Under the pieces are notes generated by a model, which was given only the letters and a program-made list of their open reading frames with translations, was not told where the DNA came from and made no database searches. From contig JAJACV010000025.1 in assembly GCA_022601335.1 (NCBI GenBank), positions 1 to 64,000 on the forward strand: a stretch of DNA of 64,000 bases, in the 5' to 3' direction. Source of the DNA: Chlamydiota bacterium. Its GTDB lineage: Bacteria; Chlamydiota; Chlamydiia; Chlamydiales; JAAZZY01. Below are positions 1 to 6,916 of the stretch, in pieces. Made by a program: the position numbers and the translations under genes. The stretch's first letter is position 1. Each line of letters begins with the position of its first letter.

Positions 1-956
1 AACAAGGGGCGCATAAACTCGCTTTAAATCAGCCATTGAGAATAAAAACAGTCTATCAATTTGCCCCTTATATAGGCGTACAGTGGAATTTCTCACCCCC
101 TGCTCTTAATAATAAATCCTACACTCTAAACGGAAAAAGTCCTAAAGCGTGGCTTCCTTATGTTGTTTACTCGGGTGATTTTCAATGTTCTAAACAATTT
201 TGGACTCAGTTTAATGCGGGATTGGGATTTCTCTACTTCAGTGGACTTCAGGGAAATTTAGCATACTCAAAAGACAACACTACAAAAATTATCTTCAATA
301 ATGCTCCTTTAAAAGGACGTCTCTCTTACAACAGAACACCTCTTTTTGATTATCTCATTGGCTTTCAATTCAATCATTGGCTCAAACTCGCTCTCTCTTA
401 TCAACACCAAGGGCAAATCAGTATTCAAAGTAAAGCACTTTCAGCTTTTACAATTGGGCTTCCTGCTTCTGAATTTATTCAATTTACCTCAAACTTAAGC
501 CTAGATGCTCTTTTAGCAAAAGTTTATTTTGAGTTCCCCTTTGCCTCTATTTGGAGAAGCCTTTCAATAAATCCTTACCTCGCTTTGGGAGTGGGACCTG
601 GATGGCAAAGTTGGACCAAAGTTAGAGTTGTTGGCATGGATGGAAACACAAGTTTTTCTTCCGCTTCTGTTAATCTTCGACAAAAGACCTCAGCCAATGC
701 GGTTTGGATGTTTGATATTGGATTTCGCCTACAAAGCGCTTATCCCAATAGCCGCTTCTCTGTCCTAATGGGTTGTAAATACAATCAATGGGGACAGGCA
801 AGAAATATCGGAAAAGGCTCACAACTAGGTGATTTAAATAATCCCCCTCCATTTTTCGCTATAAATAACGAATTTGAAGTACAACTTTTAGTCCCTGTTA
901 GGATAAAAACAGTTTATCAATGGGCCCCTTACTTAGGCGTACAATGGTCTTTTTAA
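1..956 (+). CDS. Putative outer-membrane beta-barrel protein, 5' end outside the window; internally repeated domain with a C-terminal aromatic signature
   Basis: The reading frame is open from base 3 to the stop at 956. The same 18-aa motif RIKTVYQ(F/W)APY(I/L)GVQW(N/S)F occurs at the window start (nt 39-92) and at the extreme C-terminus. The protein ends in Phe, like a beta-barrel OMP signal. The body alternates hydrophobic and polar residues and is rich in G/Y/N/S/T. Confidence 0.4.
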   Translation, partial: QGAHKLALNQPLRIKTVYQFAPYIGVQWNFSPPALNNKSYTLNGKSPKAWLPYVVYSGDFQCSKQFWTQFNAGLGFLYFSGLQGNLAYSKDNTTKIIFNNAPLKGRLSYNRTPLFDYLIGFQFNHWLKLALSYQHQGQISIQSKALSAFTIGLPASEFIQFTSNLSLDALLAKVYFEFPFASIWRSLSINPYLALGVGPGWQSWTKVRVVGMDGNTSFSSASVNLRQKTSANAVWMFDIGFRLQSAYPNSRFSVLMGCKYNQWGQARNIGKGSQLGDLNNPPPFFAINNEFEVQLLVPVRIKTVYQWAPYLGVQWSF

Positions 957-1135
957 CACTGTATATTGTCAATAAATCGACTCTGCTTCATTTGAAACAG
1001 AGTTTCGGTTTAGCATGAAATGCGATTTAAGCTCTTAATTTAAAACCATTTATTTTTTTTCAGATCTTTTCTGGAGTTTTAAACTGCTTCCAGATAGAAC
1101 AAGTTTTTAGGGTCTTGATTGAAAGGAGAATCATC

Positions 1136-2371
1136 ATGCAAGCATCTGATCCATGCGACTTGTTCCATAAGTGTTATCAAAAAGAAGGACTCTTCTCTAA
1201 TGTAAGAGAAGGTAAAGACAATTACTATGCGCAGCCTATTTTAGAAGGCCCTCTAGGACCTCATATGACTTTTAATGGGCAAAAAATGATTGTTTGGTCC
1301 ATTAATGACTATTTAGGTTTGGCAGGACATCCTGAACCAACAGCAAGAGCTAAAGAAGTCCTTGAAGCTTTTGGAACAGCCTATCCAATGGGCGCTAGGC
1401 TCATGAGCGGATTTACTCAAAATCACCAGACTTTTGAAGCTAAGTTAGCTAAATTTGCACAAAAAGAATCCGCTCTTTTATTTAACTACGGCTACTTAGG
1501 CGTACTTGGAGTGATTACAAGTATCATGGGACCTAGGGATACGGTCATTATTGATCATGATTCCCATGCATGTATAGTAGATGGAGCTAAATTAGCTACG
1601 ACTCGCCGCAATCAATTTAGAGTCTTCAGACATAATGATATGGATCACTTAGAGAAGATTTTAAAATCGATTAACCAAGATAGAAAGGGCGGCATTTTAA
1701 TTGTCACAGACGGTATTTATGGAATGACCGGTGAAGTGGCTCCTCTTAAAGAAATCTGCGCCTTAAAAGAAAAATACAACGCCCGTCTTCTAGTTGATGA
1801 TGCTCATGGCATAGGTATTATGGGAGCGACAGGTAGAGGTACTGGGGAACATTTGGGAGTTCAAGATAAAATAGATCTTTACTTTTCTACATTTGCTAAA
1901 TGTTTTGCTGGAATTGGTGGATTTGTTGCAGGAGATAAGGAAATTATTGAACATATTACATGGAATGCAAGACCTGTCATTTTCGCTAAAAACTTACCTC
2001 TTATCTACTCAGATTCACTCTCAGCTACTTTAGATGTTATTGAAAGAGAGCCTGAAAGACGTGAAAAGCTGTGGGAAATTGCAACCTATATGCAAAGGCG
2101 ATTCAAAGAAGAGGGCTTTGATATTGGAAATACTACCTCACCTATTACCCCTGTCTTTTTGAGCATTTCGGGACTAGAAGCAATCAAAGACGCAATCCAT
2201 ATACTAAGAGAAGAGTTTCACATTTTTGCATCAGGAGTCATGTACCCCGTGGTACCAAGAGGTGTTTTTCTCTTAAGACTCGTTCCTAGTTGCAGACATA
2301 CTTTCGATGATGTAAATAAGACTATTGAAGCATTTATACAAATTAAAGAAAGAATTATCAAAAAGCACTGA
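1136..2371 (+). CDS. PLP-dependent alpha-oxoamine synthase family enzyme (Kbl/BioF/SPT-like acyl-CoA:amino acid C-acyltransferase)
   Basis: Family motifs NDYLGL, DDAHG and STFAKCFAGIGGF (candidate PLP-lysine) are present, and the C-terminal YPVVPRG resembles the Kbl motif FYPVVPKG. An AAGGAG SD sits 7 nt before the ATG at 1136. The ORF track's TTG at 1115 is less likely the true start. Confidence 0.75.
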   Translation: MQASDPCDLFHKCYQKEGLFSNVREGKDNYYAQPILEGPLGPHMTFNGQKMIVWSINDYLGLAGHPEPTARAKEVLEAFGTAYPMGARLMSGFTQNHQTFEAKLAKFAQKESALLFNYGYLGVLGVITSIMGPRDTVIIDHDSHACIVDGAKLATTRRNQFRVFRHNDMDHLEKILKSINQDRKGGILIVTDGIYGMTGEVAPLKEICALKEKYNARLLVDDAHGIGIMGATGRGTGEHLGVQDKIDLYFSTFAKCFAGIGGFVAGDKEIIEHITWNARPVIFAKNLPLIYSDSLSATLDVIEREPERREKLWEIATYMQRRFKEEGFDIGNTTSPITPVFLSISGLEAIKDAIHILREEFHIFASGVMYPVVPRGVFLLRLVPSCRHTFDDVNKTIEAFIQIKERIIKKH

Positions 2372-3579
2372 TGACAGAAAAATATTCTGCAATTAAAAAT
2401 CTTGAGTGTTCAAGTTGTAATCGAGTCTACCCAGTAAATCAGATTCGGAACACTTGCAACTGTGGACAACCTCTAGTGGTCCGCTATGACCTGGAAGAAG
2501 TGAAACAGCTCACCTCTCCCCAAAATATTCGCTCAAGAGCTCCTAATATGTGGCGCTACCACGAACTTCTACCTGTATCTCAATCAAAACATGTCGTTTC
2601 TCTTGGAGAAGGCTTTTCTCCCCTTCTACCCCTAAAGAATCTAGGGCTCGAGTGTGGACTTTCAAATCTTTTTATTAAGTACGAGGGCTCCAATGTTGGA
2701 GGGACTTTCAAAGCAAGAGGGGCCTCTTGTGGTCTATCAAAAGCAAAAGAGCTTGGCGCAAAAAAAGTAGCCATAGCCACAAACGGAAATGCGGGTGAAG
2801 CATGGGCTATGTACGCGAGTCGAGGAAGTATTCCCATCACAGTCATTATGCCCAAAGATGCACAAAAAATGCCTCAAATTATCTGTAACTCTATGGGAGC
2901 ATCCACCTATCTTATAAACGGAATGATTTCAGATGCGGGTAAATTCATTGAAAAAAACAAACTTGAAGAAGAGTGGTTTGACGTATCAACTCTCAAAGAA
3001 CCTTACCGTTTAGAGGGAAAAAAAACTATCACCTTCGAAATTATTGAACAACTCGGTTGGACTTTTCCTGATGCTGTACTCTTCCCAACAGGAGGAGGTA
3101 TTGCAATTGCAGCTGCCTACAAAGCTTTTTTAGAGCTTCAACAATTGGGATGGGTCAAAGGCAAACTTCCACGCCTGATTGCGGTACAAGCGCAAGGGTG
3201 TGCCCCTCTTGAGCATGCTTTCTTAGCTAAAAGCCCTACGACTGATTTTTTTCACGGTGCACATACAAAGGCAAGCGGTTTGAGAGTGCCTAAGCCTTTT
3301 TGCGACTTTATGGTTCTAGAGGCCATTTACAAAACACAAGGTCTCGCTTTATCTGTCTCAGACGAAGAAATGTTAGAAGGTGTAAGACGTATTGGCCATA
3401 AAGAAGGGCTTTTCTTGTGCCCTGAAGCTGGAGCTTGTATTGCAGCTCTACAAACACTAAAGGAAAGACAACTCATTGAACCTCACGAAAAAATAGTGAT
3501 ACTTGGCAGCGGAAGCGGTCTTAAGTACCAAGATGTTTTTGTACAAAACGAGCTAACTGTTTTAGATGTCTCTGAATAA
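2371..3579 (+). CDS. PLP-dependent fold-type II enzyme, threonine-synthase-like, with an N-terminal Cys-rich zinc-ribbon
   Basis: The GTFKARGAS lysine motif, a TNGNAGEAWAMYA segment and a Gly-rich FPTGGGIAIAAAY loop match the ThrC/threonine-dehydratase superfamily. The N-terminus carries CSSCN...CNCG. Its start overlaps the upstream stop (TGATG). Confidence 0.6.
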   Translation: MTEKYSAIKNLECSSCNRVYPVNQIRNTCNCGQPLVVRYDLEEVKQLTSPQNIRSRAPNMWRYHELLPVSQSKHVVSLGEGFSPLLPLKNLGLECGLSNLFIKYEGSNVGGTFKARGASCGLSKAKELGAKKVAIATNGNAGEAWAMYASRGSIPITVIMPKDAQKMPQIICNSMGASTYLINGMISDAGKFIEKNKLEEEWFDVSTLKEPYRLEGKKTITFEIIEQLGWTFPDAVLFPTGGGIAIAAAYKAFLELQQLGWVKGKLPRLIAVQAQGCAPLEHAFLAKSPTTDFFHGAHTKASGLRVPKPFCDFMVLEAIYKTQGLALSVSDEEMLEGVRRIGHKEGLFLCPEAGACIAALQTLKERQLIEPHEKIVILGSGSGLKYQDVFVQNELTVLDVSE

Positions 3580-4393
3580 ATTTTACAATAATAAAGTTAT
3601 TTGGATTACTGGAGCTTCGGGAGGCTTGGGCAGACAGCTTGCTATTCACTTATCTAAGTACAATGTAAAACTTATCTTATCCGCAAGACAAGACTTGGAG
3701 TTAAAAGAAACAAAAAAAATAGCAAATCTTCCGGATCACCGCTGTTTAATTATTCCTCTAGATTTAACTTTTCTAAAAGAAGATCAAATCTCCATGATTA
3801 CAGATCGCATTTTACTTAAGTTTGATTCCTTAGATATCCTTATTCATAATGCCTCTCTCTCTCAACGCTCATTAGCTCACGAAACTCTCCTGCCTGTTGA
3901 AAGAAAAATCATGGAAACAAACTATTTTGGCCCTGTGCAGTTAACCAAATATACCCTGCCGACACTTTTAAAAAGTCAAGATCCACAAATTATCATTATG
4001 AGTAGCCTCGCCGGAAAATTTGGTATTCCCTTTAGATCTACTTACTCAGCCACAAAACATGCTTTACATGGTTTTTTTGAATCGATGAAGCTCGAGCTTC
4101 ATAAAAAAATTGACATCTCATTTTTTGTACTCAGTGGGATTCAAACGAGCTCAGCAAAACACGCTTTAAACGCGGATGGTAGTTTCAATAATCAAAATGA
4201 TGTTTGGTATGACAAATTAATGCCTGTCGAGAGTTGTGCAAAAATGATTGTAAAAAACATTCCTAAAAAGAAATCTGAAGTCATTATTGGCCCAGCGGGG
4301 CAATTGAGTTTATTTCTTAAGAAACACTTCCCTTTGATACACAAGCATTGTATGCTTAGGTTTTCTAAAAAAGAGATAAATTCAAGATCTTAA
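3566..4393 (+). CDS. Short-chain dehydrogenase/reductase (classical SDR) oxidoreductase
   Basis: TGASGGLGRQLA Rossmann motif, an NAS segment, a catalytic Ser in MSSLAG and YSATK (YxxxK) are all present. It overlaps the upstream gene by 14 nt. Confidence 0.75.
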   Translation: MSLNKFYNNKVIWITGASGGLGRQLAIHLSKYNVKLILSARQDLELKETKKIANLPDHRCLIIPLDLTFLKEDQISMITDRILLKFDSLDILIHNASLSQRSLAHETLLPVERKIMETNYFGPVQLTKYTLPTLLKSQDPQIIIMSSLAGKFGIPFRSTYSATKHALHGFFESMKLELHKKIDISFFVLSGIQTSSAKHALNADGSFNNQNDVWYDKLMPVESCAKMIVKNIPKKKSEVIIGPAGQLSLFLKKHFPLIHKHCMLRFSKKEINSRS

Positions 4394-4409
4394 AAAGGAC
4401 TGTAACTTT

Positions 4410-5054
4410 TTAAGCGCTCTCTTCCGTTTTCGTCTTGACCCATCCAAGAACATTCGCTATCACATAAAGTGTAGAAAACCATAAATAGCCCAAAACAATA
4501 GCAATCATAAAATAATATGAGCCTAACCCTTTCATAAAAGAGGCGGGTTCCATTAAGTAAAAAATGTTTTGATTCAAGGCAAGGTTATAGAGATAAACAG
4601 ATGCACAATAAACTAAGAAGAAACCCGCTGCTGAATAGATAGACCACCTGCTTAGCTTCTTCTTTTTAACATGAAAAAAGTAGATAGGAAGGATAAGTGG
4701 CACAATGTGCTTTACCCAGTAGGTTACCCAAAATAGAGGGGCTGATCTAAGCATTTGAGCATAGGGATTATTTGGCATAAAACAGATAAGAAAACAGCCC
4801 GTCCAAGCGAAAAAAAACGAAACATCAAACAATTTTTGATTGAATTTGAAAAGTAAAAAAAACTGCATGAACACCACTACGTTGCACAACCAGACAACCT
4901 GAGAGGGCTGGTTAATAAATATATGGTAGAGACAAAAGAATTGAGAAACAATGAGAGTTACCCCTAAAAGTTTAAATATTTTCACTTTAGCAAGGGTCAA
5001 TACGAGTAATAATGAAACATATCCAACAACAATGAGAGTATAAATAGGATGCAT
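4410..5054 (-). CDS. Polytopic integral membrane protein of unknown function
   Basis: About six hydrophobic helices rich in F/W/Y; no recognisable catalytic motif. It is convergent with the SDR gene. Confidence 0.4.
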   Translation of the reverse strand: MHPIYTLIVVGYVSLLLVLTLAKVKIFKLLGVTLIVSQFFCLYHIFINQPSQVVWLCNVVVFMQFFLLFKFNQKLFDVSFFFAWTGCFLICFMPNNPYAQMLRSAPLFWVTYWVKHIVPLILPIYFFHVKKKKLSRWSIYSAAGFFLVYCASVYLYNLALNQNIFYLMEPASFMKGLGSYYFMIAIVLGYLWFSTLYVIANVLGWVKTKTEESA

Positions 5055-5096
5055 AATGAGCTCTTGATTTTTACTTAAGGAGTAAGAAATTGAAGC

Positions 5097-5636
5097 TCAA
5101 TTGTCAAGAAAAAAAGGGCCTTTTTGAATCGTGCTCAAAAGTTGCGCCACAACTTCCTTATCCGTTAAAGAAGTAAGATCAAGCGATGCATCAGCGATTT
5201 GTAAGTATTTTTTTTCTCTTATTTGATACATTTTTTCAAAAGAGCTATCGAAGTTGGCTTGATCCAAATAATTAGGAATACGGCCGAGTGAAAGGGCACG
5301 CTTTGTCTGCTCTTTGCTTCGAATAAGATAGATAAACTTTCCGAGCCTTTTGAGATGATGTAGACAATTAGAATTAAGAACCGTTCCCCCTCCAACTGAA
5401 ATTACCGCATTTGCAACATTCAATTTTGAAACAACTTCTTCTTCTATAAGTCTAAATCCATCTTCACCTAAAGCCTCGTGAATTTCATGAATTTTGAGTT
5501 TTTCTGTATATTTTTTGTGATAGGCTTCAATAATCAAATGATCTGTATCAATGAATGGACATTTCAAAATAGAAGCTATTTCTTTTCCAAAGGTAGTCTT
5601 ACCCACACGCTTAAAGCCATAAAGAATAATATTCAT
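5097..5636 (-). CDS. aroK: Shikimate kinase
   Basis: P-loop GFKRVGKTTFGKE followed by DTD and an overall shikimate-kinase layout. The 4-nt overlap with aroA places it last in the aro operon. Confidence 0.85.
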   Translation of the reverse strand: MNIILYGFKRVGKTTFGKEIASILKCPFIDTDHLIIEAYHKKYTEKLKIHEIHEALGEDGFRLIEEEVVSKLNVANAVISVGGGTVLNSNCLHHLKRLGKFIYLIRSKEQTKRALSLGRIPNYLDQANFDSSFEKMYQIREKKYLQIADASLDLTSLTDKEVVAQLLSTIQKGPFFLDN

Positions 5637-6916
5637 TTCACTTTAATTTCAGCTCCTAAATGAGAGAGATGGTCAACAAAAGAGGGATAACTCTTCTTAA
5701 TACAATGTATATTTTGAATGATTGTTGTTCCTTTTGCAAATAGCCCCGCTATTGTAAGAGACATCGCTATACGATGATCATCATGGCTCTCGACAGTTGC
5801 ATCTCTTAGCTCAGATTTTTTTACAATTAAGCCATCAGGAGTCTCTTCTATCTCCGCATTCATTTTCTTGAGTTCTTTGCAAATACAGCTGATACGATCC
5901 GATTCTTTTTTGCGGGCAATAGCTGCATTTTTAATAGTGGTCGTCCCTTCAGCTAAACAGCCAATGACCGCTAAAATAGTAATCGCATCGATATAATCAT
6001 TTACATCTAATTCGCATCCTTTCAAAGGCTGTGTTCCATCTACAAGCATTTCTTTTTTAGTTGCATTGTAGTTAAATGTAGCTCCCATTTTATTAAGAGC
6101 ATCAAAAAACTTTTTGTCTCCTTGAACCTCATCCATATCAATATTTTTTAACGTAAGTGTCGACTTTGTTGCAAAAGCCGCAGCCACAGGAAAAGCGGCC
6201 GATGAGAAGTCCCCTGGCACTACATATTCAAACGGTTGAAGCGTGTTTTTTCCTTTGATTTTGTAATACGAATACCCTTTTTTCTCAAAGGGAATATGCA
6301 TTCTGTCAAACCAGCTAAGTGTTAAATCTATCCACGGTTTTTCGCCTGCTTTTTTAACCGTAATTTCTGTTTCGCCTTCTAAAAAAGCAGCCAACATTAA
6401 AATACCTGAGACGGGTTGTGAATCTTCTCCTTTAACGGTTACTTTTCCAGCACAAGCAGGCCCTTCGATCACAATAGGGGCACAATCATTTTCAAGGACA
6501 CTTTTTGCACTTGCTCCTAACGCGTTTAAAGCGTCCAATAAAGGTTTTACAGGGCGATTAGTCCTGACGGACTCATCTCCCGTTAAAGTTGTCCTGCCAT
6601 GCCCTAAAGCCGCCAGAGCGCCAATAAACCGAAGCACTTGCCCTGAATTACCTGAATCAATATCTCCTTCAGGTGGATTGAAGGTCCCATTCGTTCCCTC
6701 AATTTCAATAAATTCATTGGTATAGGTTATTTTAGCTCCCATCATTTGACAGGCTTTAAGAGCCTGCTCAATATCGGGAGAATCTAAAAGTTTGTATAAG
6801 CGGCTTTTACCTTTTGCTAAAGAGGCAAAGATAATAGATCGAATGGAATGTGATTTTGAAGTAGGTAAATCAATTTCGCCTTGAAGTTTCGAGGGTTGAA
6901 TAATGATTGAAGTCAT
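5633..6916 (-). CDS. aroA: 3-phosphoshikimate 1-carboxyvinyltransferase (EPSP synthase)
   Basis: LPTSKSHSIRS N-terminal motif, 427 aa, the EPSP-synthase fold signature throughout, and overlapping stop/start with its neighbours. Confidence 0.9.
   Translation of the reverse strand: MTSIIIQPSKLQGEIDLPTSKSHSIRSIIFASLAKGKSRLYKLLDSPDIEQALKACQMMGAKITYTNEFIEIEGTNGTFNPPEGDIDSGNSGQVLRFIGALAALGHGRTTLTGDESVRTNRPVKPLLDALNALGASAKSVLENDCAPIVIEGPACAGKVTVKGEDSQPVSGILMLAAFLEGETEITVKKAGEKPWIDLTLSWFDRMHIPFEKKGYSYYKIKGKNTLQPFEYVVPGDFSSAAFPVAAAFATKSTLTLKNIDMDEVQGDKKFFDALNKMGATFNYNATKKEMLVDGTQPLKGCELDVNDYIDAITILAVIGCLAEGTTTIKNAAIARKKESDRISCICKELKKMNAEIEETPDGLIVKKSELRDATVESHDDHRIAMSLTIAGLFAKGTTIIQNIHCIKKSYPSFVDHLSHLGAEIKVK

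Follow-up and report, generated by a model that had tools for sequence, protein, structure and literature searches.

A probable capnine-type sulfonolipid biosynthesis module in an uncultured lineage of Chlamydiota

Sulfonolipids are sulfur analogues of sphingolipids and structurally resemble sphingosine-1-phosphate and ceramide-1-phosphate (PMC9304779). They have been reported mainly from Bacteroidota, and the published gene surveys consulted covered human microbiomes. The Bacteroidota pathway to capnine and sulfobacin uses a cysteate synthase (CapA/Cys), a cysteate-C-fatty acyltransferase (CapB/CFAT/SulA) and a 3-ketocapnine reductase (CapC/KCR), followed by N-acylation (PMC9304779, PMC11211663). 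In this study, we analyzed a 64,000-nucleotide stretch (the window) of contig JAJACV010000025.1 from a Chlamydiota bacterium (assembly GCA_022601335.1). Three overlapping genes near its start encode an alpha-oxoamine synthase (AOS), a fold-type-II pyridoxal phosphate (PLP) enzyme resembling threonine synthase (PALP), and a classical short-chain dehydrogenase/reductase (SDR). The locus is probably a capnine-type sulfonolipid biosynthesis module of an uncultured Chlamydiota lineage. It is most likely a variant of the Bacteroidota capnine/sulfobacin pathway in which a ThrC-like enzyme apparently replaces the usual cysteate synthase. A full-text literature search found no report of sulfonolipids in Chlamydiae. 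Chlamydiae are thought to acquire host sphingolipids.

The chlamydial locus agrees with the Bacteroidota pathway in enzyme logic and order, with an AOS close to the two solved CFATs and carrying the SulA-type Lys, and an SDR for the keto reduction. As in CapA-CapB of Flavobacteriaceae, a fold-type-II PLP enzyme adjoins the AOS. There are also differences. The chlamydial PALP is a zinc-ribbon protein of the PRK08197 family and belongs neither to CapA, which is CBS/CysK-like, nor to TIGR03844, the archaeal type of cysteate synthase. The three chlamydial genes overlap in one operon, whereas the reductase genes of C. gleum and A. finegoldii are scattered and not clustered with the CFAT genes. The chlamydial module further has a TMEM164-like acyltransferase candidate, and its host phylum is of the obligate-intracellular type. 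The archaeal cysteate synthase, known from the coenzyme M pathway of Methanosarcinales, evolved from threonine synthase according to Graham et al. 2009, as cited in PMC12172450. It shares with the chlamydial PALP the threonine-synthase superfamily and an N-terminal Cys-rich segment. Its reaction, from phosphoserine and sulfite to cysteate, is also that of the CBS-like CapA and the one proposed here for PALP.

The sequence-only reading of this DNA had described an operon of AOS, ThrC-like enzyme and SDR. Open reading frames, Pfam matches and the sequence itself bore out the coordinates, the families and both overlaps. The AOS and PALP genes share 1 nt at the junction 'TGATG', and the PALP and SDR genes share 14 nt at 'ATGTCTCTGAATAA'. 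Because of these overlaps, translational coupling and a single transcript are suggested for the three plus-strand genes.

We compared the AOS with solved structures. The best scores were obtained with the 'Cysteate-C-fatty acyltransferase' 28eh (413.6 bits) and with SulA of Alistipes finegoldii (7u7h, 384.7 bits). A Thermus AOS reached 251 bits, serine palmitoyltransferase (Spt) 241, Kbl 213 and BioF 164, and further comparators gave 169 and 118. Identity was 47% to both CFATs, 38% to the Thermus AOS and 33% to SmSpt. When compared by profile and structure with Spt, Kbl, BioF, ALAS and CqsA, the families considered by the sequence-only reading, the AOS was nearest to the CFATs instead. None of the NCBIfam cutoffs for these families was passed; ALAS gave 231 bits (cutoff 339) and CqsA 195 (cutoff 428), and the other scores are given below with the readings that they concern. 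A genuine CapB orthologue, which adjoins a CapA that passes its model, has the same sub-threshold profile. The failure is therefore explained by the absence of a CFAT model from NCBIfam.

Active-site residues and phylogeny point the same way. An alignment of 102 AOS sequences places the PLP-lysine of the window AOS, K255 in 'STFAK', at SulA Lys251, and all 102 have Lys there. K285 in 'IFAKNLP' occupies the position of SulA Lys281 and is invariant in the alignment of the close relatives of the window AOS. Lys281 is the sole active-site difference of SulA from Spt (Radka et al.; PMC9304779), and the K281A mutant is 1000-fold less active (PMC9304779). Every one of the 96 sequences in the clade containing both solved CFATs and the chlamydial proteins has Lys at this site; the residue is Ala in Spt, Thr in the Thermus AOS and Asn in four AOS paralogues. 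In a neighbor-joining tree, the chlamydial AOS lies inside this all-Lys CFAT clade, grouped with sequences of Spirochaetota, WOR-3 and others. On every sequence criterion tested the AOS agrees with a CFAT, and we consider it highly likely to be an enzyme of the CFAT/SulA/CapB type. A second, divergent AOS paralogue is present in spirochaetes (L017:3343-4545, L018:5384-6667, L019:3269-4537 and L051:8413-9780; L numbers denote the related loci). It scores 200-223 bits, has Asn at the SulA-Lys site, and adjoins a glyoxalase-fold gene near the CFAT-type AOS.

The module proteins served as queries against the flanking regions of 94 loci. At least 80 non-chlamydial loci came from a scan of species-representative genomes with the AOS alignment, with no Chlamydiota among the matches listed. 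In 9 loci the gene that immediately precedes the AOS encodes a TIGR03844 cysteate synthase; the one tested (L012) scored 487 bits against the cutoff of 325 and is accompanied by a PAPS reductase. About 10 loci of Flavobacteriaceae have a PALP of about 350 aa in this upstream position, of which one was tested and proved to be a CapA cysteate synthase (624 bits, cutoff 600). SDRs homologous to that of the window (146-167 bits) are encoded beside the AOS in L015, L045 and L088 and share with it PRK06181 as the best family; the L045 protein is 35% identical to the window SDR (E 3e-60). The contents of these clusters match the published four-step pathway of cysteate synthase, CFAT, 3-ketocapnine reductase and N-acylation (PMC11211663). 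The sequence-only reading had placed the ThrC-like gene outside both the Spt/3-ketodihydrosphingosine reductase (KDSR) and the Kbl/Tdh pathways. The gene does fit a sulfonolipid pathway, since it occupies the position that cysteate synthase has beside this AOS elsewhere.

Two other genes were observed beside CFAT-type AOSs. In a Bacteroidetes metagenome-assembled genome (L094:9273-10607), an orphan zinc-ribbon ThrC-like gene lies directly downstream of the AOS; no curated model accepts its product (PRK08197 160 bits, cysteate synthase 109 bits), which represents a further lineage of the ThrC fold occupying this position. A two-domain protein of the glyoxalase/VOC fold, about 350 aa long, adjoins the AOS in 12 loci of several phyla. 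No specific curated family matched this protein and a PDB sequence search found no useful relative; it could be a so far overlooked part of sulfonolipid clusters.

The PALP passed the NCBIfam equivalog PRK08197, named 'threonine synthase', with 512.3 bits (cutoff 303), and reached only 145 bits against canonical ThrC structures. Its PLP-lysine is K114 in 'GGTFKARG' and its substrate loop is 'TNGNAGE'. The N-terminal Cys zinc ribbon of the sequence-only reading was confirmed as a four-Cys cluster, C13-x2-C16-x12-C29-x-C31; across 13 sequences C29 and C31 do not vary, and conservation of C13 and C16 is 90% or more. The motifs TNGNAG, EPYRLEGKKT and PTGGG are common to PRK08197 and unlike those of canonical ThrC and TIGR03844. 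Because motifs and models fit PRK08197 in general and not the known cysteate synthases, the function of PALP has to be judged from context. Its ThrC-like fold is certain from the sequence but does not tell the candidate substrates apart. The 'threonine synthase' label is weak evidence, since the same model is passed by PALPs in clusters with fatty-acyl-AMP ligase (FAAL), acyl carrier protein (ACP) and AOS, in polyketide synthase (PKS) clusters with a decarboxylase, and in nonribosomal peptide synthetase clusters.

Genes for lipid or natural-product enzymes, and not threonine-pathway genes, accompany this PALP subgroup. On a contig of 68% G+C (L105:1059-6329), a 1104-aa FAAL-ACP-AOS fusion with the AOS at its C-terminus is followed after 4 nt by a PALP 53% identical to that of the window, and then by an Rce1-like membrane protease. 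In FAAL/PKS/P450 clusters (L103:6343-8997, L104:916-3670 and the cyanobacterial L110:4529-7221), PALPs 53-55% identical to the window protein lie directly downstream of a PLP decarboxylase of PF00282. The L103 decarboxylase, the one that was compared with solved structures, scored 363 bits with GAD65/67, 347 with cysteine-sulfinate decarboxylase (CSAD), 329 with GADL1, 210 with DABA decarboxylase and about 120 with aromatic decarboxylases. CSAD and GADL1 decarboxylate cysteate to taurine. Together, PALP and decarboxylase resemble a cassette for the synthesis and subsequent decarboxylation of an acidic amino acid, with cysteate to taurine as one possibility. The PALP gene of L014 precedes a gene for a racemase; among curated models this racemase scored best with the cysteate racemase CuyB (98.8 bits, cutoff 190), and it passes the Asp-type racemase subfamily. 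All three partner families use small acidic amino acids as substrates, and cysteate-using enzymes are among the members of two. Fourteen positions divide the context-linked PALP subgroup from Firmicute-type PRK08197 proteins, including Glu143 instead of Ala right after the substrate loop. Stand-alone cyanobacterial relatives carry the signature at 11 of the 14, again with Glu143. The PALPs of Geobacillus and of several cyanobacteria are stand-alone genes and their contexts were uninformative. No hom or thrB was found in positions 1-38 kb of the window or in any related locus examined. From its position beside a CFAT-type AOS and from the acidic-amino-acid partners of its subgroup, we put the chances that PALP is a cysteate synthase at about even. 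If it is, the ThrC fold would have been recruited independently a second time for this reaction, after the archaeal case.

The SDR carries the cofactor motif TGASGGLG and the catalytic motif YSATK in its translation. Its nearest family is PRK06181, and it is nearest to 11beta-HSD1-type reductases of lipophilic ketones. Operon membership and the homologous SDRs beside CFAT genes elsewhere make it a predicted 3-ketocapnine (dehydrocapnine) reductase.

The convergent polytopic membrane protein noted in the sequence-only reading is indeed there, and proved to be a TMEM164-family homologue that travels with the module. It scored 47.5 bits in Pfam (gathering threshold 25) over positions 14-214 of the 217 in the profile, and did not pass the NCBIfam TP0381 subfamily (19.2 bits, cutoff 75). 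A PDB sequence search gave no useful match. Human TMEM164, a transacylase, forms C20:4 ether phospholipids through an acyl-Cys123 intermediate, and its Tyr177 and His181 are required (PMC12830759). The chlamydial protein is likewise polytopic and covers nearly the full family profile. Its W-x-C-N contains a conserved Cys, and its Y-x3-H is spaced as Tyr177 and His181; in four divergent TMEM164-like sequences the Cys is invariant and Y-W-x-K-H is present. Unlike the human protein, it is much shorter, Asn and not His follows the Cys, and the capnine-amine acceptor is hypothetical. No equivalent of human Glu106 was identified in it, the human sequence not having been aligned. In a database of 5.8 billion proteins, only 10 clusters of this protein were found; at least 6 have a longest contig of the same length as that of an AOS or PALP cluster and so appear to share contigs with it. 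N-acylation of capnine is a tentative candidate role for this protein.

AOS and PALP each have about 20 close protein clusters at 55-82% identity, and agreement in the length of their longest contigs suggests that the two sets of clusters lie together. Proteins identical to those of the window occur on a metagenome scaffold and in an NCBI metagenome-assembled genome labelled Chlamydiae/Chlamydiota, and the chlamydial origin is based on these NCBI protein names. The order AOS-PALP-SDR, with the same tight junctions, was found in every longer chlamydial contig examined. Independent contigs repeat the trio with identical overlaps, so the order is not due to chance. In the chlamydial contigs, the trio lies between aroC and TMEM164-aroK-aroA-aroDE-aroB, with trp genes beside aroC in L001 and L007/L008. 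In L007:10007-11960 (minus strand), three small ORFs (123, 170 and 153 aa) that match no Pfam family stand between the SDR and TMEM164-like genes. A more distant relative, L003 (AOS 58% and PALP 55% identical), keeps AOS-PALP without the aro genes; a two-domain glyoxalase-fold gene substitutes for the SDR, and the convergent TMEM164 homologue is kept (31% identity, BLASTP E 3e-21). AOS and PALP therefore form the conserved core, to which the TMEM164-like gene is attached, and the aro neighbourhood reflects synteny inside one lineage. A functional or evolutionary tie of the aro/trp genes to the module was considered and dropped, as L003 and L105 lack this neighbourhood and TrpE is divergent. 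TrpE of the chlamydial loci and of the unrelated L012 share only 40% identity (L001:352-2958; L012:1-2201), so that the presence of trpE beside the module in both looks like coincidence and not like a co-transferred block.

The proposed pathway would proceed as follows. PALP would convert O-phospho-L-serine and sulfite to L-cysteate by beta-replacement of the phosphate, a source of sulfite being presumed. The AOS would then condense L-cysteate with a fatty acyl-ACP or acyl-CoA to 3-ketocapnine and CO2, a step that homology, the diagnostic residue and the phylogeny support. The SDR would reduce the 3-keto group with NAD(P)H to capnine; adjacency and homology to SDRs beside CFAT genes elsewhere point to this step. 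More speculatively, the TMEM164-like protein might N-acylate capnine through an acyl-cysteine intermediate, giving a sulfobacin-like lipid. The sequence-only reading had proposed formation of an amino-ketone by the AOS and its reduction by the SDR, and this biochemical logic holds. Because the AOS groups with the CFATs, the predicted product is the sulfonolipid base capnine and not a sphingoid base.

Several observations weigh against assignment of the locus to sulfonolipid synthesis. The chlamydial AOS group is sister to the characterised Bacteroidota CFATs and not within them. SulA Lys281 is structural and does not bind the sulfonate (PMC9304779), so Lys285 marks the clade and is no proof of the substrate. 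The PALP did not pass the cysteate synthase model TIGR03844 (79.1 bits, cutoff 324.9), and all of its active-site motifs differ from that family (TNGNAG vs SAGNTG; PTGGG vs VGSGTG). The CapA-type model (NF053679) was absent from its 25 best NCBIfam matches, and CysK-type models gave at most 47 bits. No motif separated the AOS-linked PALPs from the stand-alone cyanobacterial ones. A PAPS reductase homologue as sulfite source was not found in the 64-kb window, and the module itself contains no acyl carrier or ligase gene. Characterised KCRs are polyphyletic, diverse SDRs, 21-27% identical to Tsc10p; as they are so diverse and unclustered with CFAT, the SDR function is not assignable by sequence alone. 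The TMEM164-like gene is the last gene in line with the minus-strand aroB-aroDE-aroA-aroK, and in L007/L008 the three small ORFs part it from the SDR gene.

The strongest competitor is a non-cysteate amino-alcohol lipid. PALP would then be a threonine synthase or another user of O-phosphohomoserine (making, e.g., homocysteate), and the AOS would make an undescribed sphingoid-like base. The structural role of the SulA Lys leaves room for this reading, as does the PRK08197 match, but FAAL- and PKS-cluster PALPs pass that model too. Threonine is reported to be both formed from O-phosphohomoserine and deaminated by a cyanobacterial 'unique ThrC' that has an additional N-terminal domain (PMC12172450); this speaks against cysteate. 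The enzyme is possibly related, although its membership in the window PALP subgroup could not be verified. Its Vmax is very low (0.0176 umol/mg/min), and the organism also has a canonical ThrC2 (PMC12172450). An mSystems 2025 paper on a 'moonlighting ThrC' has cysteate synthase only in its reference list. The gene next to the TMEM164-like gene encodes an SKI-fold kinase (window 5097-5636, minus strand). If it were a homoserine kinase, it would provide O-phosphohomoserine to the adjacent ThrC-like enzyme. The Desulfovibrio-type homoserine kinase model was marginally its best (91.6 bits, cutoff 197), followed by shikimate kinase models (87 and 85), and none was passed. However, the gene lies within the aro operon as the only shikimate-kinase candidate there, and because of this location it is probably AroK. 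AOSs of the same clade adjoin genuine cysteate synthases, and the GAD/CSAD-like decarboxylase and the Asp/cysteate-type racemase beside the PALP subgroup come from acidic-amino-acid families and not from threonine metabolism. We therefore regard this competitor as rather unlikely.

De novo sphingolipid synthesis by Spt and KDSR, with an unrelated ThrC-like gene between them, corresponds to the sphingoid-base module of the sequence-only reading. Bacterial Spt and KDSR share with the chlamydial enzymes the fold, the PLP chemistry, near-identical active sites and the condense-then-reduce logic, and an Spt model was the highest-scoring NCBIfam model for the AOS (311.6 bits). However, all three Spt models were widely missed (311.6/640, 282.1/500 and 208/670), and the SDR scored 80 bits with the KdsR model (cutoff 400). 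The AOS scored 414 and 385 bits with the CFATs against 241-251 with the Spt and Thermus enzymes, and carries the SulA-specific Lys in place of the Ala of Spts. The amino-acid-forming PLP enzyme coupled in the chlamydial operon would also be left unexplained. The sphingoid-base class is thus most likely wrong, and we find this explanation improbable.

Threonine/glycine interconversion by Kbl, an SDR-type threonine dehydrogenase and an ordinary threonine synthase has in its favour that each of the three families is linkable to threonine and that JGI automatic annotation labels many relatives of the AOS 'glycine C-acetyltransferase'. The Kbl models failed (298.5/460; 259.7/493), and the AOS is nested in the all-Lys CFAT clade. 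In L105, fusion to FAAL and ACP argues for a long-chain substrate of the AOS and not acetyl-CoA. Known SDR-type threonine dehydrogenases are GalE-like extended SDRs, whereas the window SDR is a classical one of 275 aa nearest to the 11beta-HSD1 type. The set is also confined to about 20 clusters and is not general to Chlamydiae. Such a threonine pathway is very improbable. An 8-amino-7-oxononanoate synthase (BioF) of biotin synthesis, suggested by the 'BioF/Kbl' in the NCBI name of an identical protein and by 298 bits with the BioF model, has a negligible chance, as this score is below the cutoff (426.45), the chlamydial BioF model PRK05937 was missed (129.5/399), and no bio genes were seen in the annotated window parts or related loci. 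Neither of the two outcomes that the sequence-only reading had weighed against itself, BioF among bio genes and a Kbl/Tdh set across Chlamydiae, was thus borne out.

The coordinates of the module and of features around it are collected in Table 1. The longer AOS frame from TTG 1115 was dismissed as the start, since the Shine-Dalgarno sequence points to ATG 1136. The SDR and TMEM164-like genes converge, with 16 nt between their stops. G+C is 0.36-0.44 in the module and about 0.33-0.41 in the flanks. The leader showed no Rfam riboswitch match at E<=1 (window 1-6000) and no significant structure (fold z-score -0.57). The hairpin follows the stop of the upstream gene at 956; it probably ends that gene and sets the 5' limit of the module leader. 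It is weak evidence, since counts of terminator-like sites in the region, like those of promoter-like sites, are not above those in shuffles.

Table 1. Positions of the module genes and of other features in the window, with related loci for the glyoxalase/VOC-fold gene
Feature	Position	Strand	Details
Alpha-oxoamine synthase (AOS)	1136..2371	+	411 aa; ORF 1115/1136..2371; Pfam Aminotran_1_2 (PF00155) 1.7e-43
Fold-type-II PLP enzyme (PALP)	2371..3579	+	402 aa; Pfam PALP 1.2e-59
Classical SDR	3566..4393	+	275 aa; Pfam adh_short (PF00106) 4.6e-37
TMEM164-family polytopic membrane protein	4410..5054	- (convergent)	214 aa; Pfam TMEM164 2.1e-12
Hairpin 3' of the upstream outer-membrane-protein-like gene	980..1003	+	10-bp stem; flagged on the minus strand by the scan; palindrome reads on both strands
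AT-rich leader	1004..1135	+	Consensus Shine-Dalgarno AAGGAG at 1124-1129, 7 nt 5' of ATG 1136
Glyoxalase/VOC-fold loci	L003:10432-11460; L012:2624-3685; L015, L017, L018, L019, L024, L034, L044, L045, L051, L088		

The sequence-only reading had named the upstream neighbour an outer-membrane-protein gene. The gene is there, and ORF 36..956 (plus strand) is the end of an 875-aa gene; its outer-membrane beta-barrel Pfam matches are only faint. This ORF has a near-identical 19-residue motif at both ends (RIKTVYQFAPYIGVQWNF / RIKTVYQWAPYLGVQWSF). In this lineage, two large paralogous genes (867 and 875 aa; L001:3191-8469) are inserted between trpE/aroC and the module, and only the second shows the faint beta-barrel matches. 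In other lineages, their position is filled by an ankyrin-repeat gene or a 390-aa gene. A gene survey found only housekeeping genes at 9.4-38 kb of the window.

Sulfonolipids induce rosettes in choanoflagellates (PMC3463246) and modulate TLR4/MD-2 in mammals (PMC11525784). If the capnine-type reading of the module is true, Chlamydiota would have a self-made, host-active outer-membrane lipid, a candidate for host manipulation. The PALP subgroup, a group of 'threonine synthases' whose partners suggest that an acidic or sulfonated amino acid is formed, could correct many annotations. It could also explain the second cyanobacterial 'ThrC' and reveal a taurine-forming cassette in natural-product clusters. 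The TMEM164-like protein is a candidate for the N-acylation of sulfonolipids, a step that has no named enzyme in the sulfonolipid papers cited. A wider proposal joins these points and is, taken as a whole, doubtful. The Glu143 subgroup of PRK08197 would be a third independent family of cysteate or sulfo-amino-acid synthases, feeding CFATs in Chlamydiota and a high-GC bacterium and CSAD-like decarboxylases in cyanobacterial lipid clusters. Along with it, the TMEM164-like protein would be an N-acyltransferase. An intracellular chlamydia would then make its own mimics of sphingosine-1-phosphate and ceramide-1-phosphate and would not rely only on host sphingolipids.

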